In this document: one piece after another, positions 1,859 through 45,430 of the stretch
How positions within the stretch are numbered: position 1 is the stretch's first letter
Layout of the letters: every line of letters begins with the position of its first letter
NCBI GenBank assembly: GCA_965153355.1
Contig: OZ231126.1
Coordinates: forward strand, 28,210,001 to 28,274,000
Length of the DNA: 64,000 nucleotides
Reading direction: 5' to 3'
Source: Flaccisagitta enflata
Taxonomy: Eukaryota
Translations under genes and position numbers: made by a program
The notes under the pieces: model-generated
Told to the model about the DNA's origin: nothing
What the model saw: the letters and a program-made list of their open reading frames with translations, nothing else
Databases searched by the model: none

Positions 1859-3035
1859 ATGTCACTAACAAGGAATGTTCTGCTGAAAGTGAGTTTCGCT
1901 CAAGCGCGACGTCGGCGATCAGAATCGGAATATGTTCTACCTTCTTCGACTGACAATGACGATGCGTGTGAAGCCGGGAATGTCACCCACAATGCCATCA
2001 ACGCTTCAGAAAACTCGTTTCCGATCTTTCGTGACAACGACGATTCAGTATTTTCAACCCCCAGTCGAGGCGGAAAGGATATCGTTAGGAAAAGCATCGA
2101 TGATTCTCCGTCCAAATGTGACCGGGAAAATGACTCCCCCGAAAAGGAAAATAAAGGTCGTGGTTGATTACATTTTCTAAATTGAGAGAATGAGCGAATC
2201 TGTTTATGAAGATATTTTGTAGGTCAGTGTAGAAAACAAAGTGAAACAAAAACAAACAAGTGACACGGTCACAATATCGTTGCGGACGGGTGGGCAGGGG
2301 CATACAACCCCCGTCCACACCCTCACCCACACACAGACAATCACAACGGCAGTCTAGAATATGCGCGTTTTTGCATGGTTCAATTTGATAATCACGGACG
2401 GACCAATGCACCGACGGACGGACAAAGCCTCTTATAGAGTTGCGTGTCCGCATCTAGAAACACGGAAGTACTGCAGGATGATGATAGTTTATCGATGTTA
2501 ATCTGCATGTACTGGTTCTCCCTCAGAAAATGTAATCCAACCATCAGGTAGGAGATCCTCTCCTTTGCACCGTCTTTCTGGTCGCATTCGACGTCGGCGC
2601 TCATTGTACGACGACAGCGGCGTCCTTCCGCACGTTCGGCGCCGTTCTTCTTCATTTTCCTTTCCGATCGTCAAAAAAGGAACATTCATTAGCGGAAAAA
2701 CAAATACCAAACCGGCTCGAAGATGGACCAAAGTCGAGGACGAATGGATTCCCATCGGCGGAGTCCGTAAGAGAATTCCCGGCGGCCTGAAAGACAGACT
2801 GCAGAAGATACGAGATCGACGGGCGTTGAAAAATGGCTCTGGCGCCAATTCCCGCCAGGATGATGTCGACGGGGTTGTGCCGTTAGTTTCGACGAACGCT
2901 GGAATGGGAGGCAGTCGAGATCCCAATCGACGCCGCGATCAAACGACGCCGGAAGCGCAGAAGACTAAAGAAAGACCGCGCATCGATAGTTTTAGCTCCC
3001 TCGTTGCTGAGGCCGATACACCCTGGTCGGTGTAA
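1859..3035 (+). CDS. Putative two-exon gene (1859..2156 + 2527..3035), ~268-aa low-complexity Ser/Arg/Asp-rich protein of unknown function
   Basis: ATG ORF 1859 and ORF 2565 join in frame through a phase-1 intron (aaag|gtcgtg at 2157 ... ttctccctcag| at 2526). The intron is AT-rich and contains a repeat copy. No recognisable domain. Confidence 0.5.
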
Positions 3036-3141
3036 TTAACGAATTTATGCTCTGTTGTACTGAATCAGTTCAGTACTTACCGGAATTGAAACTATCTCTT
3101 CTTATTGTTACATTGGCTTGTCAAACCAATTGGAATTTTAC

Positions 3142-3203
3142 TACTATTCCGCCTACAGGGAATGTTCGTCGACGAAACAAGGTTGGAGAAAAAGATAAAC
3201 ATT
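3142..3203 (+). repeat. Split direct repeat A1 (left terminus)
   Basis: tactattccgcctacagggaatgttcgtcgacgaaacaaggttggagaaaaagataaacatt, identical to 11521-11582. Confidence 0.95.
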
Positions 3204-3393
3204 CTCCGATGGTGTCCTCGCTTCTCCGACGTGGTCCCTCTCCTGATTCACCAGCAACATTCGACGGAATCAGCTTCAAAAACAATTAAATTTTTTGCAT
3301 TGCCTTCCCCCGCATATTTATTTTTCCTTTCTTTTATTCCCTTTCAGGCTTACTCATAAACAACTTACTAAACATTCATTTAAAGCTAGAGAA

Positions 3394-3822
3394 ATGGCCT
3401 CCACGCTGCCTTTTGTCAAATTGGACCCCAATGCCCATGCTCCAAGGAGAGCTTCTGCTGACGCCGCCGGGCTAGATCTTTTCGCGGTGAACGAAGTCGT
3501 CATTAATCCTGGCAACCGCGAGCGAGTTGAGACCGGCATTCAGGTGGCGATCCCTCGAGGCTACTACGGTAGGATCGCTCCTCGCTCGGGCATGGCTCTG
3601 CGGATGGGCCTCGACGTTGGCGGCGGCGTTATCGACGCCGATTATCGTGGCGGTGTCGCCGTCATTCTTTTCAACCACGGCGCCTCAGAGGTCAAGATTC
3701 TCCCCTCTGATCGCATTGCGCAGCTGATTATCGAGAAGATTGCCTGCCCCGTTCCTGTGGAGGTTGTTTCTCTCGAGGATACCGAACGCGGTTCTGGCGG
3801 TTTCGGCTCCTCTGGCTATTGA
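3394..3822 (+). CDS. dut: Trimeric dUTPase (142 aa) encoded inside the retrotransposon
   Basis: All five dUTPase motifs are present: AGLDL, GRIAPRSG, GVIDADYRG, DRIAQL, RGSGGFGSSG. Intronless; ATG at 3394. Confidence 0.95.
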   Translation: MASTLPFVKLDPNAHAPRRASADAAGLDLFAVNEVVINPGNRERVETGIQVAIPRGYYGRIAPRSGMALRMGLDVGGGVIDADYRGGVAVILFNHGASEVKILPSDRIAQLIIEKIACPVPVEVVSLEDTERGSGGFGSSGY

Positions 3823-3985
3823 GTAATCGATACATCATCAAGATCTAAGCATTCGTATTTCCGTTCCTGTTCGTTATTTTTCTTGCATTTCACGTTTTCT
3901 GTTCTGTTCTGTTACCGTTCTCTTTAGTTATTTCAGATTTACTCAATTAATTTCCTAAGTTTTGACTAGCGTATTTTTCTGCAAA

Positions 3986-5412
3986 ATGGCTGCTACGCCA
4001 AAGCCACCCAAGAGTTATTACGATGCGATGGAGCCTCTGCCGGAAGACTTTCATCCTTACGGTCCCGATTGCGCTCTTCATCGCGAGGTTCAATGCGTCG
4101 CCTTCCATCACGGGTTGTCGCTGGAACACGTTCAGCAGTTAGCCGGCTTTGGCTTCAATTCCGTTACGTCCTTTTCTACGTGCAAGCCCGATGGCACGGA
4201 GAACGAGCAATGTTTGCATCGCCTTGCTTTGGCTCTCTTCAAGTCCGAGCTCATCCGTCATAGGGTGGCCCTAGCGATCGCGCGTTTGAACAGCGGAGAT
4301 CCCTTTGCTCCACTTCCTCCGCCCTTGTTTACGCCTTCAGCATCGCCGTCCGTGTCAAGTGCGGCTTCGTTGCCCCCGGCAAAGAGACAGAAAGTTTCTT
4401 CGAACGAGGCGCAGGCGGCGCCTTCTCCAAACGCATCGCAGTCGACGCTCCCGGCGTCATCTGGAGCGCCGCCTGTAGCAGCGCCGCTTTCTGGCATGGC
4501 CGCGGCCGCGGCTGCTTCCGTTGGGTCTTCTGGCGGCGTCGAGGCCACATCCTCGTCTGGGACGGCGCGAAGAATCGTTACGATGGATGGCGCGAAAGAT
4601 CCCAAGGAGTATTCTGACTCTGATTCTGATTCAAGCTCGGATTCGGATGGTGGCGTCGGTTCTTCCTCGAAGTCCAGCGGAAAGGCGAAGGATGCAAATG
4701 CCATGGTCGAGGGTATCGGCAGTGAGGTGAGAATTCTGATGGTCGGTGATTGGATGATTTCTTTTGAATCTTATTTGATTGACATTGTTTCTGCCATGGA
4801 TATTTTGATATGATGTTTGCCATTTTACAGAGGCTGTCAAAGAGATGGCGCGACTTGCTCGATCACTGCCAGATTCGTATGGAATGTAATTCCGATTCCG
4901 GCGACTACAGCACGATGTTGTACCTGTTCAAGAAAGTCATTCGCTCTGCCAAAGGCTCTCGCGTTGCAGATCCGGTCAAGAACAAGGCTCAGGCGTTGCG
5001 CAGGACTTTGAAGTCCATTTTTCATCTCATCAAGACCCATTGCGTTAATGGAAATTCCGGCGTTGCCACGGTGTTGTACAATGAATTGTCAGGTTTGGCC
5101 GGCTCCTCGACCATCAGACGTGTCAACAAAACGTTACAGCAGACCTTTGGCGCCGCCCGCGGTCGCCTGAGTTCAAACACACGTTCTGACAGCCCGACTG
5201 CCGTTCAGGCTTCTTTCCCAACTAACACCGGACAGACCGCTGGCCGCGGTGGTCGTGGAGCCTTCCAAGGGAATTTTAGGCGTAATTTTCCCAACAATCG
5301 TGGCAACGCCGGCGGCGCCGCTGGGGGCCGTCGCGTTATGCGTTGTTTTATTTGCAATGTCGTTGGCCACGGTTTTCAGCAGTGCCCCCAGCGCCCTGAT
5401 AGTACTTCTTAG
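3986..5412 (+). CDS. Gag-like ORF1 (exons 3986..4726 + 4831..5412, ~440 aa) with C-terminal CCHC zinc knuckle
   Basis: A phase-0 intron (gag|gtgaga at 4727 ... cattttacag| at 4830) joins the two ORFs in frame. An RGG-rich stretch precedes CFICNVVGHGFQQC (CX2CX4HX4C). Confidence 0.8.
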
Positions 5413-6014
5413 TTTCCTTTGATCAATGCCTCAAAGCGTTTTCACCTTCTCGGGAAAGGCAGTAAGACTCTTCTTGGGTCTGTGTAGTAATTTCGTTTAA
5501 AGTCGTAATATGTGATGGTTCCGTCTTGGGATGGCGGCGGCAGCGGTAGCGGAATTTTGCGAGTAATAATGTTTTGATCTGTTATCACCTTTTCTTTACT
5601 ATTTTTGGCGTAGATAATCTTTATTGTTGACACGTTGATTCATCGTTTTGGTTTTTCCTCTTTCAGATAAGCTGATAGCTAGTTTCATTAAAATGGCGTT
5701 TTTTGGTTTCAAAGAAACAAACAGAAATGTTGAATTTAGAGACAGTAACGAGAATGATTGGTTTTATGGAATATGGACTGTGGAAGAGGAAGTGATTTCA
5801 TATATCACATGATATATGTTTGGCGGCATGTTCGTGGTTTGGTTGATGTTCGATCTACCCCCCCCCCCCTCGGCGGTTCATTATGCCGTCGTCGGGCCGT
5901 CGTCGTTGCCACGGATCTGCCTTTGCTCGGCTTTTGCATCTATTTTTGTGCATGCTTTTACATTTATTTTTGTACATGCTAATAATTCATATGATTCTTT
6001 TCATTCTCGGTTGG

Positions 6015-6490
6015 AAATATGTTGTGCCGTGATTTTAGTCACTTGGGTGCCAACATTTGTGAAGCCATTATGGGGCCGTGACTTGGTCACATGAGTGCTC
6101 CTTGGTTTAGCTTCAGTTTTATACCGAGGTTCGATATAATTTTTGACATGTACAATGCAGAGTTTCTCGCGCAAAGGGGAAAAGTGTTTATTTGTGTTTA
6201 AGGCCGTGATTCAGTCACTTGGGTGCCTTCACTTTGGTTTTTTGGGAGATGTTTGCATTTCGTCCGTCTGTCTGCTATGTCTATTTGTCAGTTCGTTTCT
6301 CCCCTGTCAGCATAGTCGTGACAGCAGGCTGTGTCAGCCCTTTTTCCCCGTTATGATTATTTGCACCTCCTTAGACCCTTTGCCGTGATTCGGTCACTTG
6401 AGTGCAAAGCCTTTTCTTTTGTGCCTTGGGCACAGCTTCTTGGTCTTGTTTTTGGCTCGCCGTGATCCTGTCACTTGAGCGCGAGGCCTT
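6015..6490 (+). other. Array of five conserved stem-loop motifs GC-C-GTGAY-(3-4 nt)-GTCAC-WTGRGY-GC, each with a copy-specific closing stem (putative cis-acting RNA element)
   Basis: Cores at 6026-6050, 6075-6098, 6203-6226, 6382-6405 and 6459-6482. The flanks differ between copies but pair in each (atgttg/caacat, aagcca/tggttt, aagg/cctt, ctttgc/gcaaag, ctcgc/gcgag). Confidence 0.75.
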
Positions 6491-6626
6491 TGTGGAGGTG
6501 GTTTGCTCTGCGCGGAATGTACTGTTTCTGGCGTTGCAAGTTAATTGGCTGATGGCACGGGTTTTTTGCCTGAGATGAATTTTCGTCTTATCATATGGTT
6601 TTTTTTTTTCATGGCCTGGTTCTCAT

Positions 6627-6676
<50 letters not shown>

Positions 6677-7573
6677 GCCTTTGCCAAGTACATGAAAATT
6701 CGCGCCACCAGGCCCCCGCTTTCGTCCAGAGATTTTGATCCATTGGCCGCAATGGCCCGTCGCAGTTCGAAGGGCCCTTCATGGGTTGACCTGGAGGGGC
6801 GGCCTGCCTCTCCTCCCGATTTCTCCCGGCTGCCCACGCCAGACGATGTTCTTGCGGGACGAGCAGCCCCCGATTGTGAAGGCTTGAGGCTTCGGTCTCA
6901 ATATACTTTTGTTTGTGGACATTTGCACGATTATGTACCAATTTGGGATTGTTACATGTCCGGTCTGCCGGGCTATGATATTGTGCGCCCATGGCTCAAG
7001 GATGGGGTTCACATCCCTTCCTTTTTTCAACATTTTAAGGGCTCTTTCAATGGGCGTGTTTTCGATTCCTCAACCCCTCCCCCCATGTTTTTTCAGAACG
7101 CTCCAATATGCTGGGAGTACGAGGATTTCATCTCTGATACTGTTTTGAAACGATTGGAGGAGGGTAGCATGCTTTGCCTTGGCCGTGTTGGGGAAACTCC
7201 CCCCCCTTATGTAGTTAATGCTCTCAGCATCGAGCCCATCAAGCCCCGCCTTATATTGTCTATGAGGGCGGTCAATTTGTTTTGTCGCGATACCCCGTTT
7301 TCGCTTGCTCCTTTAACTGATATTGTCAAGGCCATCCCCAATGGCTCTTATTTCTCATCCTATGACGATGTTCAAGGCTACAAGCAATTATCTTTGACAA
7401 AGGAGTCGTACAAATTTTGCGGTTTTGAATGGAACGGTTGGTGGTTTACTGACACAACCCTCCCATTCGGTTGGAAAAACAGTGCTTATGTTTATACAAT
7501 GACGGGTGAGGTTCTTTCTCAATGGCTTCGCTCGAAAGGGGTGCACAATGCCCTCTGGATCGATGACAGATTT
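6677..7573 (+). CDS. pol segment 1: reverse transcriptase (DIRS-order type)
   Basis: KPRLIL, SSYDDVQGYKQL (motif A), TLPFGWKNS (motif B), LWIDD (motif C). Begins after a (CT)n-cag acceptor at 6676; first ATG at 6692. Confidence 0.9.
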
Positions 7574-7673
7574 GTGGGCTTGGCCCCGCCCTTTTGATTT
7601 CATTTTCTACCAGTTTATTTCATTTCCTGCTTGCTTTCTACCATTTTGGTTTTCTTTCATTTCTGTGTCCTAG

Positions 7674-8161
7674 GATTCTCTCGAGCTGCGGGCTAGACGG
7701 GCCTCTTACGTTCTCCTCTACGCGGCAATGGTATTGGGTTATTTCGTTTCTCAACTGAAGAGTACTCTGCTTCCCGTTCAGCGTATGGTCCACCTTGGGC
7801 TGGGAATAGACTCATCATTGATGGCATTTTTTCTGCCGGACAGACTTCGCCAGAAATTTCGTGGTCGAAGGGAAGAACTTTTGTCAACGGGTTTAGCCAC
7901 TGAGAAACAGATGCAGTCATTTATCGGGAAATGTAACCATTTAAAATCTGTTTTCCCCGCTTCATCCCTTTTTACATTCCATTGCCGTCGTTTTGTATCG
8001 CAGCTTGACGAAAATCCTTCCCCCCTACCCCATGAAGTTATGGAGGAAGTCCGTTTTTGGTCCTGTATTGACTCGATGACCGACCCTATTCCTTTTCGTC
8101 GCCATCAGCATTTGCGTCTGAGCCTCTTCACCGACGCGTCTGGGTATGGCTGGGGGGCCTA
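7674..8161 (+). CDS. pol segment 2: RT C-terminal part, connection and start of RNase H
   Basis: LGYFVSQLKSTLLPVQRMVHLGLGIDS and LFTDASGYGWGA. Follows a pyrimidine tract and tag| acceptor at 7673; interrupted by a MITE at 8162. Confidence 0.85.
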
Positions 8162-8495
8162 CCGTATTTTCTCCATTTATCGCCCCCCCTCCAATTAACG
8201 CCCCCCCCTCTTAGAGCTCTCCAGAACAATAATATGAAGGAAGGTGAAATAGCAAATAATCTTTAAAAGTAGAAAGATTTTGCATATTTCAGTGGTTTTT
8301 TTCAAGGATTGAATAAAAAACAAGCAAGATATATCTTATCTTATATATATCTAATATCCTAAGTGGCATTTTTTGTCAATAACGTATAATTAGAGAGTTT
8401 TCACAGATTAAAAGGGGGCGCTAATTGGAGGGTGAAAAGACATTATATTTTTTCAATTTCAAAAGCGCCCGGGGCGCTAATTAGAGAAAATACGG
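8162..8495. mobile_element. 334-bp MITE (Tc1/mariner-pogo type, TA target duplication) inserted in the RNase H domain
   Basis: TIRs ccgtattttctc / gagaaaatacgg flanked by TA at 8160-8161 and 8496-8497. Removing the element plus one TA restores GWGAYVSLPSG in frame. Confidence 0.92.
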
Positions 8496-8497
8496 TA

Positions 8498-9830
8498 TGT
8501 GTCTCTTCCCTCTGGTCCGCTTGTCCTCCGCGACTATTGGCAGTCTGATCTGTTGTCCAATGATATATGCGTCAAAGAGGCTTTGGCTGTTCTGTTTGTC
8601 CTTCAAGCCCTGCCTGAGTCTGTATGGTCACGTCGAGTTGACATTTGTGTTGACAATGAAGGTCTGTCCCTCGCCTGGTCGGGCCTCCGGGCTTCCTCCC
8701 AGGGTTTAGCCGAAGTCTTGAAAGAATTAGCCCTCCTATGTATCGATTTAAATGTTGATTTGCGCCTTCTCTGGGTGCCCACAGATTTCAATATTGCTGA
8801 CGCTCCCTCTCGCGTCTTGTGTCGCAGCGACGCCCGCCTTTCTGACGCTCTCCGTCTTTCCCTTTGGGAGCGTTATGGTCCATTTTCATGGGATTTGATG
8901 GCCCTTCCGTCAAATGCCTTTTCCGTTTATGGGCGTTCTCTGCCTTTCTTCTCTCCTTTTCCCATTGCTGGATGTGCGGGCGTGGATGTTTTTTCTCAGC
9001 GCGCCCCTCGCGGAGTTTCATATGCCTTTCCCCCCTTTGTCATGATCTTGCCCTTGATTGGTTTGTTGGAAGAGTGGGGCGATGTTTGCGCCATTTTGGT
9101 CCTCCCCTTTGACTCCTTTTCTGCACCACCAAGCTGGTTTTCACGACTTTCCCCTTTCATTTTGGAAATCATGCCTTTGGTTTCCAAGACAGACATTGGT
9201 TCTGTCCTTTTTCCTTCATCCGGGGGTTTCGCTCCAAACTGCTATCCCTTAGCCTTTGGCTTGTCTGCTTTCAAATGTTTCTTTCCACCACGGGCCACTC
9301 TCCCTCGGCCCTTTCCTCCTCCTCCTTTCAGGATCCTCATCGGTTCCGACTCAATGTTGCGCCCTTTGGCCGCTTTAAAATGGCCCTCTCCTTTCAATGT
9401 TGAAGTAGTTTGCCTTTCCGGCGCCTCTCTTGCCACTGTCATTTCACAGCTTGTTTTGCGCCTCCCTGCCCAGTTTGATGCCTGCCTCTTTCACGCTGGT
9501 GTCAACGATGTTTCGAGGGGGGGCGATGACTTTCAGGGCTCCTTTCAGTCCTCCTGTTCTTATGCAGCTTCTGTCCTTTCATCGAAATTCCCGGAAGGTG
9601 CGATTTTGTGCTCGTCTGTCTGTCAGACCAAATCCGCGAGCCTTAACGAGCGAGTGCGTGTAGCAAACGAGGCTTTCCGCTCCTTTTCTGCCTCCTATTC
9701 CTGGCGGTATGTTTCTCACGATAATATTCGTTTTGCCGATCTCTCAGACGAGGTCCATTTGAGCGCTTCTGGCGTCGCTAAAATGTATCGCCATTTATGT
9801 TTTGCCTTTCGCTCTCTGCTGAGTAGTTAA
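8498..9830 (+). CDS. pol segment 3: RNase H + DIRS-type N6-adenine methyltransferase-like domain + SGNH/GDSL hydrolase domain
   Basis: RNase H: ICVKEALAV, CVDNE, WVPTDFNIADAPSR. MT-like: WDLMALPSNA...FFSPFP...GVDVFSQ...SYAFPPFVMI...AILVLP. SGNH blocks: IGSDSM, LSGASL, FHAGVND, DEVHLS. Confidence 0.85.
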
Positions 9831-10107
9831 TGATTTTCTAGTTGGCATTATTGCACAATGTTAACAATGTTCCATAATACATCGTGATGCTAACAATGTT
9901 CCACAATGCTTTGCAATGTTCCACAATGTTTCAGTGTATGCGAGTAATTCAGGAGTCGCTTGGCGTTCAATGTGGAAGCTGGGGCAGAGTAAGCGCCATC
10001 TCCGGCGGTCATGGAGTGAAGTTGTTCAGGTAAATTGGTGGTGAATGTGTATGGTGCTTGCTGTTTACGTTCTCTTCTGCCCCCTCTTCCCTTTCCACAT
10101 CCGGCAG

Positions 10108-11328
10108 TTGGATGGTTATTTCACCCGCCGCGACGCGCTGCTCCATCTTGTTAAAGGCTCTAGTTATGAGATTCAAAAATCACGTTTGGCGCAGGATTTG
10201 TGCACCTTCCTCATGGCTCATTCATCGCTGCCCCCTCCGTTGGCGACGGCTGCTTCAATCGATAAGGCAACTCCTGAAGACATTGGGAAATTTCTTTACT
10301 TTCGTGATTCCCGCGGCCGCACACAAATTCATAAATCAAGTTGTCCTTTCATCGGCATGTCGGGCTTAAAGGACTGCGGTTGCCGCGTGGGCCTTGCAGC
10401 TGGAACAATTGACTCCATGATTGGCAAGTTGAGAGCCTATTTCAACAGTCGTGGGCAGACTCAGCCTTATTCTCCCTCGTCTTCTAATTCTAATCCCTGC
10501 GACTCGACGTTTGTCAAGGATTGGCTCAAGGCGGCCTACAAGGAACAGCGGCTTGCCAGAGTCACGCCGCATCAAGCGCCTCCCCTTTTTTCGACGCATT
10601 TACGCCTTCTCGCAGCGGAGATCTCACGCCGCATTGCTTCTCTTCCTTCTTCAGCGCCGCTCTTCCCCGAAAAATTTTGCCTTTTTCGAGATCGCGCTTT
10701 CTTCTTGATTCAATGGTTCAGTGGCGACCGGGCCGGGGATTTGGGACGTGCGGTCGGTCAAGAGGTCTCGCGACCTTCAACGGGTGCCTTAATTCTCAAG
10801 CACACAATTGGAAAAACAATTCGTCAAAGTGGCAGTCAAATTTTAGTGGTGCCTCATATCCCGGAAGATTCGCTTGTTTGCCCTGTCCGCGCTTTCGACG
10901 ATTATGTTGAAGTTTGCAAGTCAGGCGGGATTGATTTGAAGGGAGGTTTTCTTTTTCCTCCCCTCCTGGCCCCTAAGCGGAACAGCGTAAGGAACGCTCC
11001 TTTTAATTCGGCGGCTGCTACAAAGAGAGTGCGTCTCTACATTTCTCCCGATGTGCTTCCTGACGTTTCCGCCCATGGCGCCCGGGCGGGCTGTGCTACA
11101 ACCCTTCTTCTCCTCGGCGCCTCTAAAGATGAGGTCATGGATCATTGTAGGTAGGCTTCAGAGCGCGTTTGCAAGCAGTACCATCAGCTTCAAAAGGTCT
11201 CCAGGATTAAAGGCTCAGCTTTGCGACTTAAAGACGGTCTCCTCGCTTCAGACGAGAAATCAGCAGACAGCGCGGCGGCTTTCTACGAATCCCTGAATAA
11301 TGGGGAACATCAAGCTCCTGCCCTATAA
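10108..11328 (+). pseudogene. Tyrosine recombinase of the retrotransposon, with premature TAG at 11152-11154 (probably from TGG)
   Basis: RDRAFFLIQWFSGDRAGDL (catalytic R), HTIGKT (K), SAHGARAG (HxxR), DHCR*ASERVCKQY (H/W and nucleophile Y). The frame stays open after the stop until TAA at 11326-11328. The 5' start is uncertain; possible upstream exon ~9970-10029. Confidence 0.88.
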
Positions 11329-11455
11329 TCTTTAATCCCCTCTTGCTCTGTAAATAATGATTTGCGTCTGGTTAGTACTGGGTGAGATATGGGTGTTGTG
11401 TGTCCGAGCCTTTTGATTTTCGAGGCCTCTGGGGCCTCGATACTCATGTACTGCA

Positions 11456-11582
11456 GCGCTTTTTGCCCACTCCCTAAACACAGGTTCGTCGACGGGCAGA
11501 AACTGCTTGGCGGAATAGTATACTATTCCGCCTACAGGGAATGTTCGTCGACGAAACAAGGTTGGAGAAAAAGATAAACATT
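11456..11582 (+). repeat. Internal B1-A2 junction of the split direct repeats, with a 24-bp palindrome
   Basis: B1 abuts A2 across ggcggaatagta|tactattccgcc (11509-11532), a perfect palindrome. Confidence 0.93.
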
Positions 11583-11761
11583 TCCGTAGGGGGATAGGCT
11601 GATATAGGCTGGTGAATCAGGTATTGATTATCCTTGTGTGTGTGGTGTTGCTGTATGTGATTGCTTCTCGATCAATATCAATGGAATAATTTTTCATCCC
11701 TTTCCCTCCCTCCCTTCTCTCTTTCACCTGCCTTCTGGCAATCCATACGGCAACACTGCAC

Positions 11762-11830
11762 GCGCTTTTTGCCCACTCCCTAAACACAGGTTCGTCGACG
11801 GGCAGAAACTGCTTGGCGGAATAGTATACT
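11762..11830 (+). repeat. Split direct repeat B2 (right terminus)
   Basis: Identical to 11456-11524. Confidence 0.95.
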
Positions 11831-14052
11831 GTGTTAGTTCGTCATAGTCAGCAAATTTTGCCAAAAAGAACATTTCGTTTAGTCGTTTATAACAGAATTA
11901 GCAAAAAGTTTCGTACTCTGTCTTGAAAACCATACTTTTTGCGGGAGTTATGAGCTAAAATTTGAACCAGAGTATCTCAGTTGGTCATACTAAAGGTAGA
12001 AATGAAGAGCAACTGATAAAATTTCCATACATGGCCATGACCTGTATCTAAAACAAAACCGAAATCAGGATTAATACATGATTTTATTTGCAGAACTGTG
12101 TTTATCAAAAGAAGAGTCTTTGCAACTTTATTGGCCCCTAGTTGGACTCTTTCTAAGGAGAAATGCATCTAGGGGAGTTGGTTAGGTCAACTAGCATGGG
12201 GTTTCAGTCAGCAGAAATTGATATATCAATCCAATTAAGACAAGAGTTGAATGTGCATTCAAAGACCAAAAATCTATTTTAATCTATTTCATTTGTCCCT
12301 ATTAGTTTAACAAGACCAAGTAGGCCAATAGATGCGACGTGTGGATCGTCGAACGAATGCGTTACAGACCAACCGACCGACAGACAGACCGACGGACACA
12401 GCCCGTTATAGAGGTGCTTTGTCGCACCTAAAAACATAAAAATGAACTCTGCTGTCTAACATGCCTCCATTCATCTTTTCTGAAGTTAAAGTATAATCTA
12501 ATTTTCAACTATGAACATTTCTTTCAGATAATTTCTTTAATGCTAGGTGTCTTTTCTTAAGATTTGATGACAAGTACGAAATTTTTTGCACACCCTGTTA
12601 ATAGCGAATGGTGCTGTTTACTTTTGAGCGAATCAAATCGTCCAACTTGTGGTCTTTCCATTCCATTTGCGTTGCTGTTGAGTCAAGCATCTTCATTCAG
12701 GTTTCCTGTCTCCGAATGTGACCTTATATACCCTAAATCCATGCATGTGATCTTTTTTTCACCCATCCATCCTATCTATATCTTTTGAGTCTATATCCTA
12801 ATGGAATCATGAGCATCGGGTCCGTCTGGAGGCACTAGCACTGATACTTGATACATTGATTGGAAAGTAATAAGTATCGAGATGTTCCTACCGTTTCCTC
12901 CTCTTCTCCATCGCCATCCTTCTTCCCCCGAAGTGGGTCTCCCCTCGTTACCCCTCTTTTTAATTTTTTTGCCGATTTTGAAATATCGGAACCGGGCAGA
13001 ATCGGAAATTTAAGGGAAGCAGAGCAGCTAGACGGCGGCATTAAGCCAATGAGAGCGAAGAAAAACGAACCGCAGAAAGCGAAGGATCCTATCAGAGGCC
13101 GGAGTCAGTTACTATCCAACACACCGTCTGCGCGACGACACATTTGCGGGGTGAATCATTGCCATCGTTAGAAAAAGAGAGAGAAAGGAATTCGATTCGG
13201 CACGATTTGAATCGCGTAATAGTAACCGCTCTCTTATTTTGATTGTTTTCTTACATCGTTCATTTACGACAGGGATTACTCGTTGACATGAACCTGGGCA
13301 GGACGGACACGTAAAAAAGAGACAGACCTCGTATTTGTCTCTTTGTCGGTACGTCCGTCATCGCTTTGTCGCTGTTTCTCTCCTACCCTGTTTCCAATAC
13401 AATACTGATCAGCCAGCACGCGTCAAGGGCGAGGCACAAATTTCGACCTCATAACAAACATTTTTCTTCTCTGCGTGCCAAGTTTGGTCTTATGAAAATA
13501 GAAGTAAGGTCTGCTGTCATACGGGGGTGTGATAAACAGATTTTAAGATCCACATGATTTGTTTCTTTCCCTTTTTTCTCACGACTTAGTTTGACGGTTA
13601 TTTATAGCGAGTTATGTCGTAGTACTGTAAATTCTCAAACTATAAATATCGATAAAATATCTCTCATATGTGGTGGTATTGACTGTCCCATATTGATATT
13701 CAATTTTATTCACCATCTCATATTATTATTGAGTATTGACCATCTTCTATTCATATTGACTATCCCATAGTTATTTTGGGATCGAATTAGTTAAAGATGT
13801 CTCATGTAGGGTAGCGAGGGGTGGGGAGGGGTGGTTACACCACCCCTCGCCCCACCCCTCCCACCCCTCGGTTGAAATTGACCACCCCTTGGTTTACCCC
13901 TCCCACCCCTTGGTTTACCCCTCCCACCCCTTGGTTTACCCCTCAGTTTACCCCTCAGTTTACCCCTCGGTCCACCCCTCACCCCACCCCACCCCACCCC
14001 TCACCCCACCCCTCGGTTTTTTTTATACTTCAAAAATTTGATAAAATTGCTA

Positions 14053-16337: not shown

Positions 16338-45430
<29,093 letters not shown>

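Follow-up and report, generated by a model that had tools for sequence, protein, structure and literature searches.

Conserved intron-like segments in a Ngaro-type tyrosine-recombinase retrotransposon of Flaccisagitta enflata suggest a role for host splicing in its expression

Reverse transcription normally erases introns, and retroelements that keep them are therefore rare. Penelope-like elements (PLEs) are called exceptional for their spliceosomal introns in a passage of PMC4209133, while parts of PMC3735527 and PMC5580714 describe retroviruses, BARE and Ty1/copia elements in which splicing serves expression, including that of env and accessory mRNAs, and separate RNA pools serve translation and replication. 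Ngaro elements are defined by a split-repeat layout, A1...B1A2B2 (PMC8547959, section 11; PMC9210276, introduction), and their structure, with a hydrolase open reading frame (ORF) in some members, is treated in passages of PMC8547959, PMC7192593 and PMC9210276. A description of introns in Ngaro or DIRS elements was not found in searches of open full texts; the words intron and splic- have 0 occurrences in the DIRS/Ngaro surveys PMC3783388, PMC3266345 and PMC9210276. Here we analyse 64,000 nt of Flaccisagitta enflata DNA (assembly GCA_965153355.1, contig OZ231126.1, positions 28,210,001 to 28,274,000; hereafter the window), of which positions 3142-11830 are classified, on their repeats and coding content, as one 8.7-kb Ngaro-type tyrosine-recombinase (YR) retrotransposon. 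Intron-like segments interrupt its gag gene, the reverse transcriptase (RT) part of pol and the YR gene, and we conclude that the element probably belongs to a family whose gene expression involves host splicing.

A preliminary description of this DNA, made from its letters, had recognised a retroelement with introns. The first part of that assignment was borne out, and the split repeats and the domains now place the element more precisely as a YR element of the Ngaro type. Its ends are as follows (all coordinates are those of the window).

3142..3203, + strand: A1 terminal repeat at the left end (62 nt, matching A2 at 100% identity)
11456..11524, + strand: B1 repeat (69 nt, 100% identical to B2)
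11521..11582, + strand: A2 repeat, identical to A1
11762..11830, + strand: B2 repeat, right end of the element, 100% identical to B1

The order A1-[dUTPase, gag, pol, YR]-B1A2B2 gives the split direct repeats that characterise Ngaro elements. RT is indicated by a match to RVT_1 (7e-5, below the Pfam cut-off) and by strong homology to PF00078-bearing proteins, and RNase H was assigned solely by eye, from the D..E..D..D pattern in the translation. A YR is present rather than a DDE integrase, with 108 homologues, several of which carry PF00589 and most an ALOG domain. Pfam returned no DIRS-type methyltransferase and only a weak GDSL_2 match (0.0035), in a search too weak to exclude such an enzyme. 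The element thus resembles Ngaro elements in its A1-[ORFs]-B1A2B2 order, gag-like ORF, RT/RNase H, YR and the SGNH-type hydrolase known from some members. It differs from the described ones by its 1.26-kb gag-pol spacer, by a dUTPase as the first ORF and by the intron-like segments in gag, RT and YR. In amphibian Ngaro elements, moreover, the hydrolase is a separate ORF after YR and reading frames overlap, according to a passage of PMC9210276, whereas here it is the C-terminal part of pol and precedes YR. The B1/A2 junction (11485-11555; left end 3132-3208) forms an imperfect palindrome centred on ..GGAATAGTATACTATTCC.., which is likely the recombination core for YR. From the homologues found, the family appears to be large and diverse and is seen in marine metagenome assemblies.

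The preliminary description had placed a splice acceptor before every ORF and had proposed three phase-0 GT-AG introns. Its sites are correct: AG stands at 3346-3347, 3935-3936, 4829-4830, 6675-6676, 7672-7673 and 10106-10107, GT stands at 4727, 7574 and 10030, and each phase-0 removal restores a frame. The acceptor motif by itself, taken as YAG with at least 12 pyrimidines among the 15 preceding nucleotides, is no better than chance. It has 21 sites on the + strand of the element (2.4/kb, versus 1.06/kb on the + strand of the whole window), several of them inside coding exons, and the named sites 4830 and 10107 fall short of the threshold; a one-in-three phase match is likewise weak. Relatives, discussed below, support the acceptors before gag exon 2, pol, the second pol segment and YR, and for those before dUTPase and gag the motif alone can be named. 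Segments 4727-4830 and 10030-10107 have the marks of U2-type GT-AG introns (GT..AG ends, a pyrimidine tract and a restored frame), as formally has 7574-7673, with a weak donor.

The gag gene provides the clearest comparison between occupied and empty sites, and comprises the following parts.

3986..4726, + strand: gag exon 1, 247 codons (homologous to P0255 1-223, P0262 7-213 and P0236 76-309)
4727..4830, + strand: predicted intron 1, 104 nt, phase 0 (GTGAGA..TTTTACAG; donor context GAG/GTGAGA)
4831..5412, + strand: gag exon 2 (stop 5410-5412; a C-x2-C-x4-H-x4-C zinc knuckle near the end, read from the translation)

Excision of 4727-4830 joins the ORF at 3986-4726 (frame 2) to that at 4831-5412 (frame 1) at codon boundaries. 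The segment has a GC content of 0.34, versus 0.54-0.58 in the exons, contains stops in all three frames and begins with the best-scoring donor (5.75) among the 503 GTs of the element. Gag exon 2 had 44 matches in a full HMMER search. P0214/P0255 (436 aa, ENA assemblies; two members of this cluster are on contigs of 9517 and 9553 bp) and P0236 (497 aa, JGI) are continuous proteins with both gag halves, in which residue 247 of exon 1 and residue 1 of exon 2 correspond to consecutive residues, 224/225 in P0255/P0214 and 309/310 in P0236. P0262 (438 aa) has 25 extra in-frame residues exactly at the junction, the first V and the last Q, as expected of a 75-nt GT..CAG segment that is read through; it is the single informative relative for conservation of the donor GT (V). 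P0210/P0261 and P0211 are second-half-only ORFs with an unconserved start that ends in Q just before the conserved block. On these alignments, the gag site is occupied in three subfamilies, that of the window included, and precisely empty in two, as would be expected if a genuine intron had been lost now and then.

Without any splicing, the proteins might instead be made from separate ORFs by termination-reinitiation, internal initiation or recoding, with an ATGA at 4810-4813 serving gag and internal starts serving pol and YR. The ORF-1 stop TGA (4811-4813) of gag does overlap an ATG (4810-4812) in the frame of ORF 2. However, gag is one seamless protein in two subfamilies, and the pattern of occupied and empty sites argues against two ORFs with an ATGA overlap.

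The YR gene has a predicted intron close to its start, preceded by a short exon with its own ATG.

9970..10029, + strand: predicted YR mini-exon, 20 codons (ATG 9970; frame open back to ATG 9916; no stop before donor 10030)
10030..10107, + strand: predicted intron 3, 78 nt, phase 0 (GTAAAT..CCGGCAG; donor context CAG/GTAAAT; in-frame TGA 10042-10044)
10108..11328, + strand: YR body, ALOG-type N-terminal and catalytic domain (ALOG 5.3e-20; 108 homologues)

Removal of 10030-10107 drops the in-frame TGA and links the ATG mini-exon to the YR body. Donor 10030 scores 5.43, second best among the GTs of the element, and the composition of the segment shows no contrast with its surroundings. We aligned the 85 closest of the 108 matches (P0007-P0091), leaving out the 23 most distant. 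Upstream extensions are present in 34 relatives, 33 of which have Q (CAG) at position -1, the exception being P0036, and F, L, S and P make up 61% of residues upstream of the junction versus 28% downstream. We consider the introns of gag and YR likely to be genuine. Upstream of the YR mini-exon, and behind the pol stop, 9858-9915 is a 29-nt tandem duplication rich in AACAATG, which could be a regulatory region for a YR transcript.

The acceptor predicted before pol follows a run of dinucleotides, (TC)23, and consists of CAG 6674-6676 (AG 6675-6676). The first pol exon begins directly after it.

6677..7573, + strand: pol exon 1, RT fingers and palm to WIDDRF (RVT_1 7e-5, below the Pfam cut-off; 94 homologues)

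A length-matched search with this exon gave 94 matches, 19 of which start 5 or more residues upstream of the junction. Every one of the 19 has Q (an in-frame CAG) directly before the first conserved residue, behind an unconserved stretch that is rich in F, L, S, P and C and varies greatly in length. The account without splicing can point to an ATG at 6692 in pol and another at 10048 in the YR frame, but such internal ATGs are not conserved in position, and what lies upstream of the conserved blocks reads as translated pyrimidine tracts ending in CAG. The position of ATG 6692 is M, L or F in relatives, so that it is not a conserved pol start. The pol and YR ORFs are instead predicted to begin at conserved phase-0 3' splice sites, and we regard the pol acceptor as likely real, if a little less firmly than the introns of gag and YR. 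Elsewhere in the window, a host kinesin-13-like gene (23520-23732, 23969-24150) has a ~200-nt (TC)n tract right before the acceptor of one exon, so that (TC)23-CAG before pol looks like normal host usage. In that gene, a 182-nt GT..AG intron also begins with a weak donor, GTCAAT, and (TC)n and (GA)n microsatellites are frequent throughout the window.

No convincing cis mini-exon was found upstream of pol: ATG/GT at 3209-3213 and at 6595-6599 were considered as mini-exon starts and rejected because both donors score below zero. The only upstream donor scoring more than 2.4 is 4727, that of gag exon 1, which is phase-compatible with 4831, 6677 and 10108. The preliminary description had already pointed out that 4727 and 6677 fit each other, and both are indeed at codon boundaries. 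A Gag-N-Pol fusion made by alternative splicing from 4727 to 6677 is the best candidate for feeding pol, and we put it forward tentatively, as the less probable outcome.

A spliced leader (SL) ending in AUG could donate a start codon through trans-splicing. A polycistronic transcript might be trans-spliced at the acceptors, at least at that of pol and perhaps at those of dUTPase, gag and YR. This would suit a conserved pol acceptor at which coding conservation starts, without a conserved ATG or a cis mini-exon. The other genes fit it less well: gag has an ATG of its own, common to P0262, and for YR a cis donor of top rank stands 78 nt upstream, behind an in-frame ATG, so that a donor at a distance or in trans is not needed. 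Rfam gave 0 matches on the window and thus no SL RNA gene, which says little. We consider trans-splicing unlikely.

The third interruption divides RT immediately after its catalytic motif.

7574..7673, + strand: intron-like interruption of RT, 100 nt (weak donor TTT/GTGGGC, acceptor ..TGTGTCCTAG; exact 5' boundary uncertain)
7674..8159, + strand: pol exon 2 part one, rest of RT and start of RNase H (tblastn to P0003-P0006)
8496..9830, + strand: pol exon 2 part two, RNase H, a conserved middle and an SGNH/GDSL hydrolase (stop 9828-9830; Lipase_GDSL_2 0.0035, below the Pfam cut-off; homology to P0001 and P0005 runs through the hydrolase)

Excising 7574-7673 connects 6677-7573 to 7674-8159 in frame, and the T content of the segment is 0.49, versus 0.30-0.31 in the exons. 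The motif xDDR[FLIH] is found in 83 of the 94 pol matches; a stop follows within 20 residues in 74 of these 83 and after 21-40 residues in five, and the tail between motif and stop is mostly 7-8 residues long (59/74). The remaining four continue for more than 40 residues, three as distant uninterrupted RTs (38-43% identity) and one, P0197, by entering a shifted frame. Many of the short RT ORFs are on contigs of 5-9.5 kb. With 7574(7577)-7673 removed, the distant uninterrupted RTs P0003-P0005 align contiguously, and residues 295 and 297 of P0003 map to 7576 and 7674. A scan of metagenome DNA found six loci of 36-52% identity, two of which (L001 and L004) are open across the RT site in a single frame, whereas scans for relatives' DNA in genome contigs and viral contigs returned no match. 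No long pol above 59% identity occurred among 6 matches from 1715 candidates, which is weak evidence. An ESM Atlas search with the pol piece 7674-8159 gave unnamed clusters only. Position is shared and absence precise in gag, and the RT site is likewise occupied in 74/83 relatives and empty in distant ones; this distribution indicates that the RT interruption is a family trait. The interruption also argues against expression from separate ORFs, since RT would be split after its catalytic motif with no overlap of frames (ORF 1 stops at 7597, and TAG 7671-7673 closes the frame that follows). The closest named pol relative, P0001 (Patiria miniata LOC119719725, 59% identity), is a gene model that deviates from RT homology directly behind WIDDRFI and omits ~35 aligned residues. 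An echinoderm element may have this interruption as well, and the gene prediction may have gone wrong because of it.

These comparisons also bear on the alternative of insertions confined to this copy, or of decay in a dead element, with no relation to expression. The copy in the window is in poor condition.

8160..8495, strand not assigned: insertion of a miniature inverted-repeat transposable element (MITE) breaking pol (336 nt, 27-nt inverted ends, TA duplication)

The inverted repeats of the MITE (27 nt) are 89% identical, its TA flanks were read directly from the sequence, and its very high copy number shows in a word depth of 55,000-244,000 versus ~90 for the element. The Tc1/mariner-type name is inferred from the TA duplication only, the other features of a MITE being present. 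In X2, from a second individual, a contig joins 8159 straight to 8496, so that the insertion is allele-specific and polymorphic between individuals. In YR, a premature TAG (11152-11154) lies upstream of the catalytic Tyr region, at a site that is W in P0007, a metagenome protein of 99% identity, and in all aligned relatives reaching this position. With a MITE in pol and a TGG-to-TAG-type stop in YR, the window copy is, by its sequence, dead or dying. No second copy was found within the 64,000-nt window, and word depth in X1 is 84-111 for the element and 117-152 for the flanks; a depth not above that of the flanks leaves no further near-identical copy visible at ≥92% likeness and suggests a single locus.

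Decay and single-locus status would suit copy-specific insertions, but many relatives of 43-77% identity are interrupted in the same way and at identical sites. The X2 DNA contigs (~0.8-1.7% different) also contain all three segments, covering 4499-6593, 7558-8159 without gaps and 9018-10694. Since the interruptions lie at conserved sites in relatives, the segments are family features, and we regard copy-specific insertion, which the preliminary description had named as the outcome that would speak against its reading, as very improbable. The anatomy of the element, the conservation of the sites and the presence or absence of the gag intron among subfamilies are visible in the sequences themselves. 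Among the 15 of 326 DNA joints that were listed, none lies at intron coordinates, which does not exclude intron-less DNA copies.

Several points weigh against the conclusion that host splicing takes part in expression. The most specific concern the RT segment. The codon that supplies its GT (V, 7574-7576) is V in 21, L in 48 and I in 5 of 74 relatives, so that the GT expected of a spliceosomal intron is not conserved. The residues behind it are conserved although they would be intronic (G 71/74, A 62/74 and P 65/74, a G-x-A-P motif), as is the position of the stop. Donor 7574 scores -2.79, at the 78th percentile of the GTs of the element, and any codon boundary within 7574-7595 joined to 7674 keeps the frame, GT being present at 7574 only (7577 is GG and 7583 is GC). 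More generally, no in-frame ATG-bearing exon with a positive-scoring donor lies within 400 nt upstream of the pol acceptor. The donor matrix is approximate in its frequencies; GT and AG in relatives were inferred from V and Q in read-through translations; and the relatives share ancestry, so that their counts are not independent events. A polyA run from the same study, X8 (12.16 million reads, ~6% of the run), has zero depth on 2503-12093, with neighbouring host genes at ≤0.57. That spliced RNA was not observed in this sample would also agree with expression from separate ORFs, but the flanking host genes are nearly uncovered too, and the zero depth is therefore no test of expression or splicing. 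In view of the gag, pol and RT comparisons, expression of separate ORFs without splicing appears improbable, more so even than trans-splicing.

The RT interruption might not be an ordinary GT-AG intron. Its 5' end could begin with GG (7577) or GC (7583) instead of GT, or it could be a conserved element in which the first ~15 nt and the stop have a function of their own, for example in making a truncated RT isoform or as a cis signal restricted to unspliced RNA. The V/L/I alternation after RF is a conservative, coding-like pattern, and it agrees with this view, as do the G-x-A-P residues, the uniform tail, the weak donor score and a tblastn match of exon 1 that extends through the V codon. On the other hand, before the stop, 7574 is the only codon boundary in the window copy that starts with GT, the remainder of the segment is rich in T and has no counterpart in uninterrupted relatives, and an RNA fold of 7540-7700 gave no significant structure (z = +1.07). 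Two further donors were considered and rejected. A strong one at 7506 (4.63) is in phase 1 and falls within coding sequence that is conserved; for a phase-2 donor at the conserved stop, the window offers no AG acceptor of matching phase. On balance, an intron of one kind or another, its 5' end not yet fixed, seems to us reasonably probable here, and we think it doubtful that the segment is one of the other things named above. The GT-AG intron of the preliminary description thus stands as a family-wide interruption, and falls short in that the donor GT is not conserved.

From the gag, pol, RT and YR comparisons, a mechanism can be proposed in which the unspliced transcript would be the template for reverse transcription, so that introns would persist because it is this transcript that is copied, and full Gag, Pol and YR would be translated from spliced transcripts. 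Subfamilies with an intron-less gag would go back to spliced RNA that was occasionally reverse-transcribed, and the upstream exon feeding pol would most plausibly come from the gag exon-1 donor 4727, as the Gag-N-Pol fusion discussed above. Actual splicing, and the identity of the copied RNA, are predicted here from DNA and protein sequences. The full joint version, in which host splicing is obligatory, pol and YR have no start codons and begin at conserved 3' splice sites, the unspliced RNA is the replication template, the spliced RNAs are the messages, Pol is made as a Gag-N fusion and the conserved G-x-A-P motif (~12 nt, GC-rich, at the start of the RT intron) is a cis signal that marks only the unspliced RNA for packaging or reverse transcription, seems to us a possibility of rather low probability. 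Retained introns might also hide an element from host surveillance of intronless genes.

The proposed division between copied and translated RNA resembles that of retroviruses and long terminal repeat (LTR) elements, in which, as the passages cited above describe, unspliced RNA is the genome and spliced RNAs are mRNAs; in the window element it is predicted from DNA. In retroviruses and LTR elements, however, gag and pol are readable on the unspliced RNA, whereas full Gag and Pol here need segments to be removed. PLEs, in the passage cited above, are alike in that genomic copies of a retroelement family retain introns. They differ in their telomerase-like RT, GIY-YIG nuclease and single ORF, while the window family is affected in more than one gene and has two ORFs that begin at acceptors.

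The remaining features of the element lie upstream of gag and between gag and pol.

3346..3347, + strand: acceptor-like AG before dUTPase, candidate (14/15 pyrimidines then CAG; motif alone)
3394..3822, + strand: dUTPase ORF, uninterrupted, 142 codons and stop (PF00692 8.8e-38, covering 2-129 of 129)
3935..3936, + strand: acceptor-like AG before gag, candidate (motif alone)
5413..6676, + strand: gag-pol spacer, 1.26 kb (three ~176-179-nt repeats at 6034, 6210 and 6389; (TC)23 at 6629-6674)

The closest solved relatives of the dUTPase are cellular trimeric enzymes (1e-41), the retroviral enzyme of feline immunodeficiency virus (FIV) being more distant (5e-21), and we therefore regard it as of the cellular type. 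What we take to be the five trimeric-dUTPase motifs are readable in the window translation. P0262, the sole relative reaching that far, has its start aligned with the gag ATG (3986). The acceptors before dUTPase and gag are candidates on motif alone, and it is doubtful that they are functional. Each of the ~176-179-nt spacer repeats holds a short palindrome, GTGAY..GTCAC, and the repeats could be an internal promoter or a binding array. According to parts of PMC5408684 and PMC6431247, dUTPase is rare in retrotransposons and is a pol domain of Gypsy-like elements. A trimeric dUTPase is likewise carried by some retroviruses and by Gypsy-like elements of basidiomycetes, bdelloid rotifers and planarians, in the cases that these passages treat; in contrast to such domains inside pol, the YR element in the window has an enzyme of cellular type, encoded by a first ORF that stands free.

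The element is situated ~107 nt downstream of the stop of a host ORF (3033-3035). Repeats at 2086-2502 and 12094-12500 are of extremely high copy number, with word depth in the millions. Positions 2086-2502 are the sole examined part with substantial RNA reads (depth ~43 per strand class), and these match only partly, so that they derive from other copies of the repeat. The exact locus with its flanks is present at low depth in X3-X6, marine metagenome runs of 2013-2016, and host DNA is thus present in seawater samples.

Nearly all relatives found are unnamed ORF pieces in metagenome assemblies, most of them from ENA. Annotation based on ORFs cuts such elements into pieces of 150-450 residues, and they would be under-recognised unless splicing is modelled. 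With a cellular dUTPase as its free-standing first gene, this YR element lengthens the short list of dUTPase-bearing retroelements. If the proposed role of host splicing is true, this family would provide a second, independent system for studying how a retroelement separates the RNA that is copied from the RNA that is translated, and why introns are kept.

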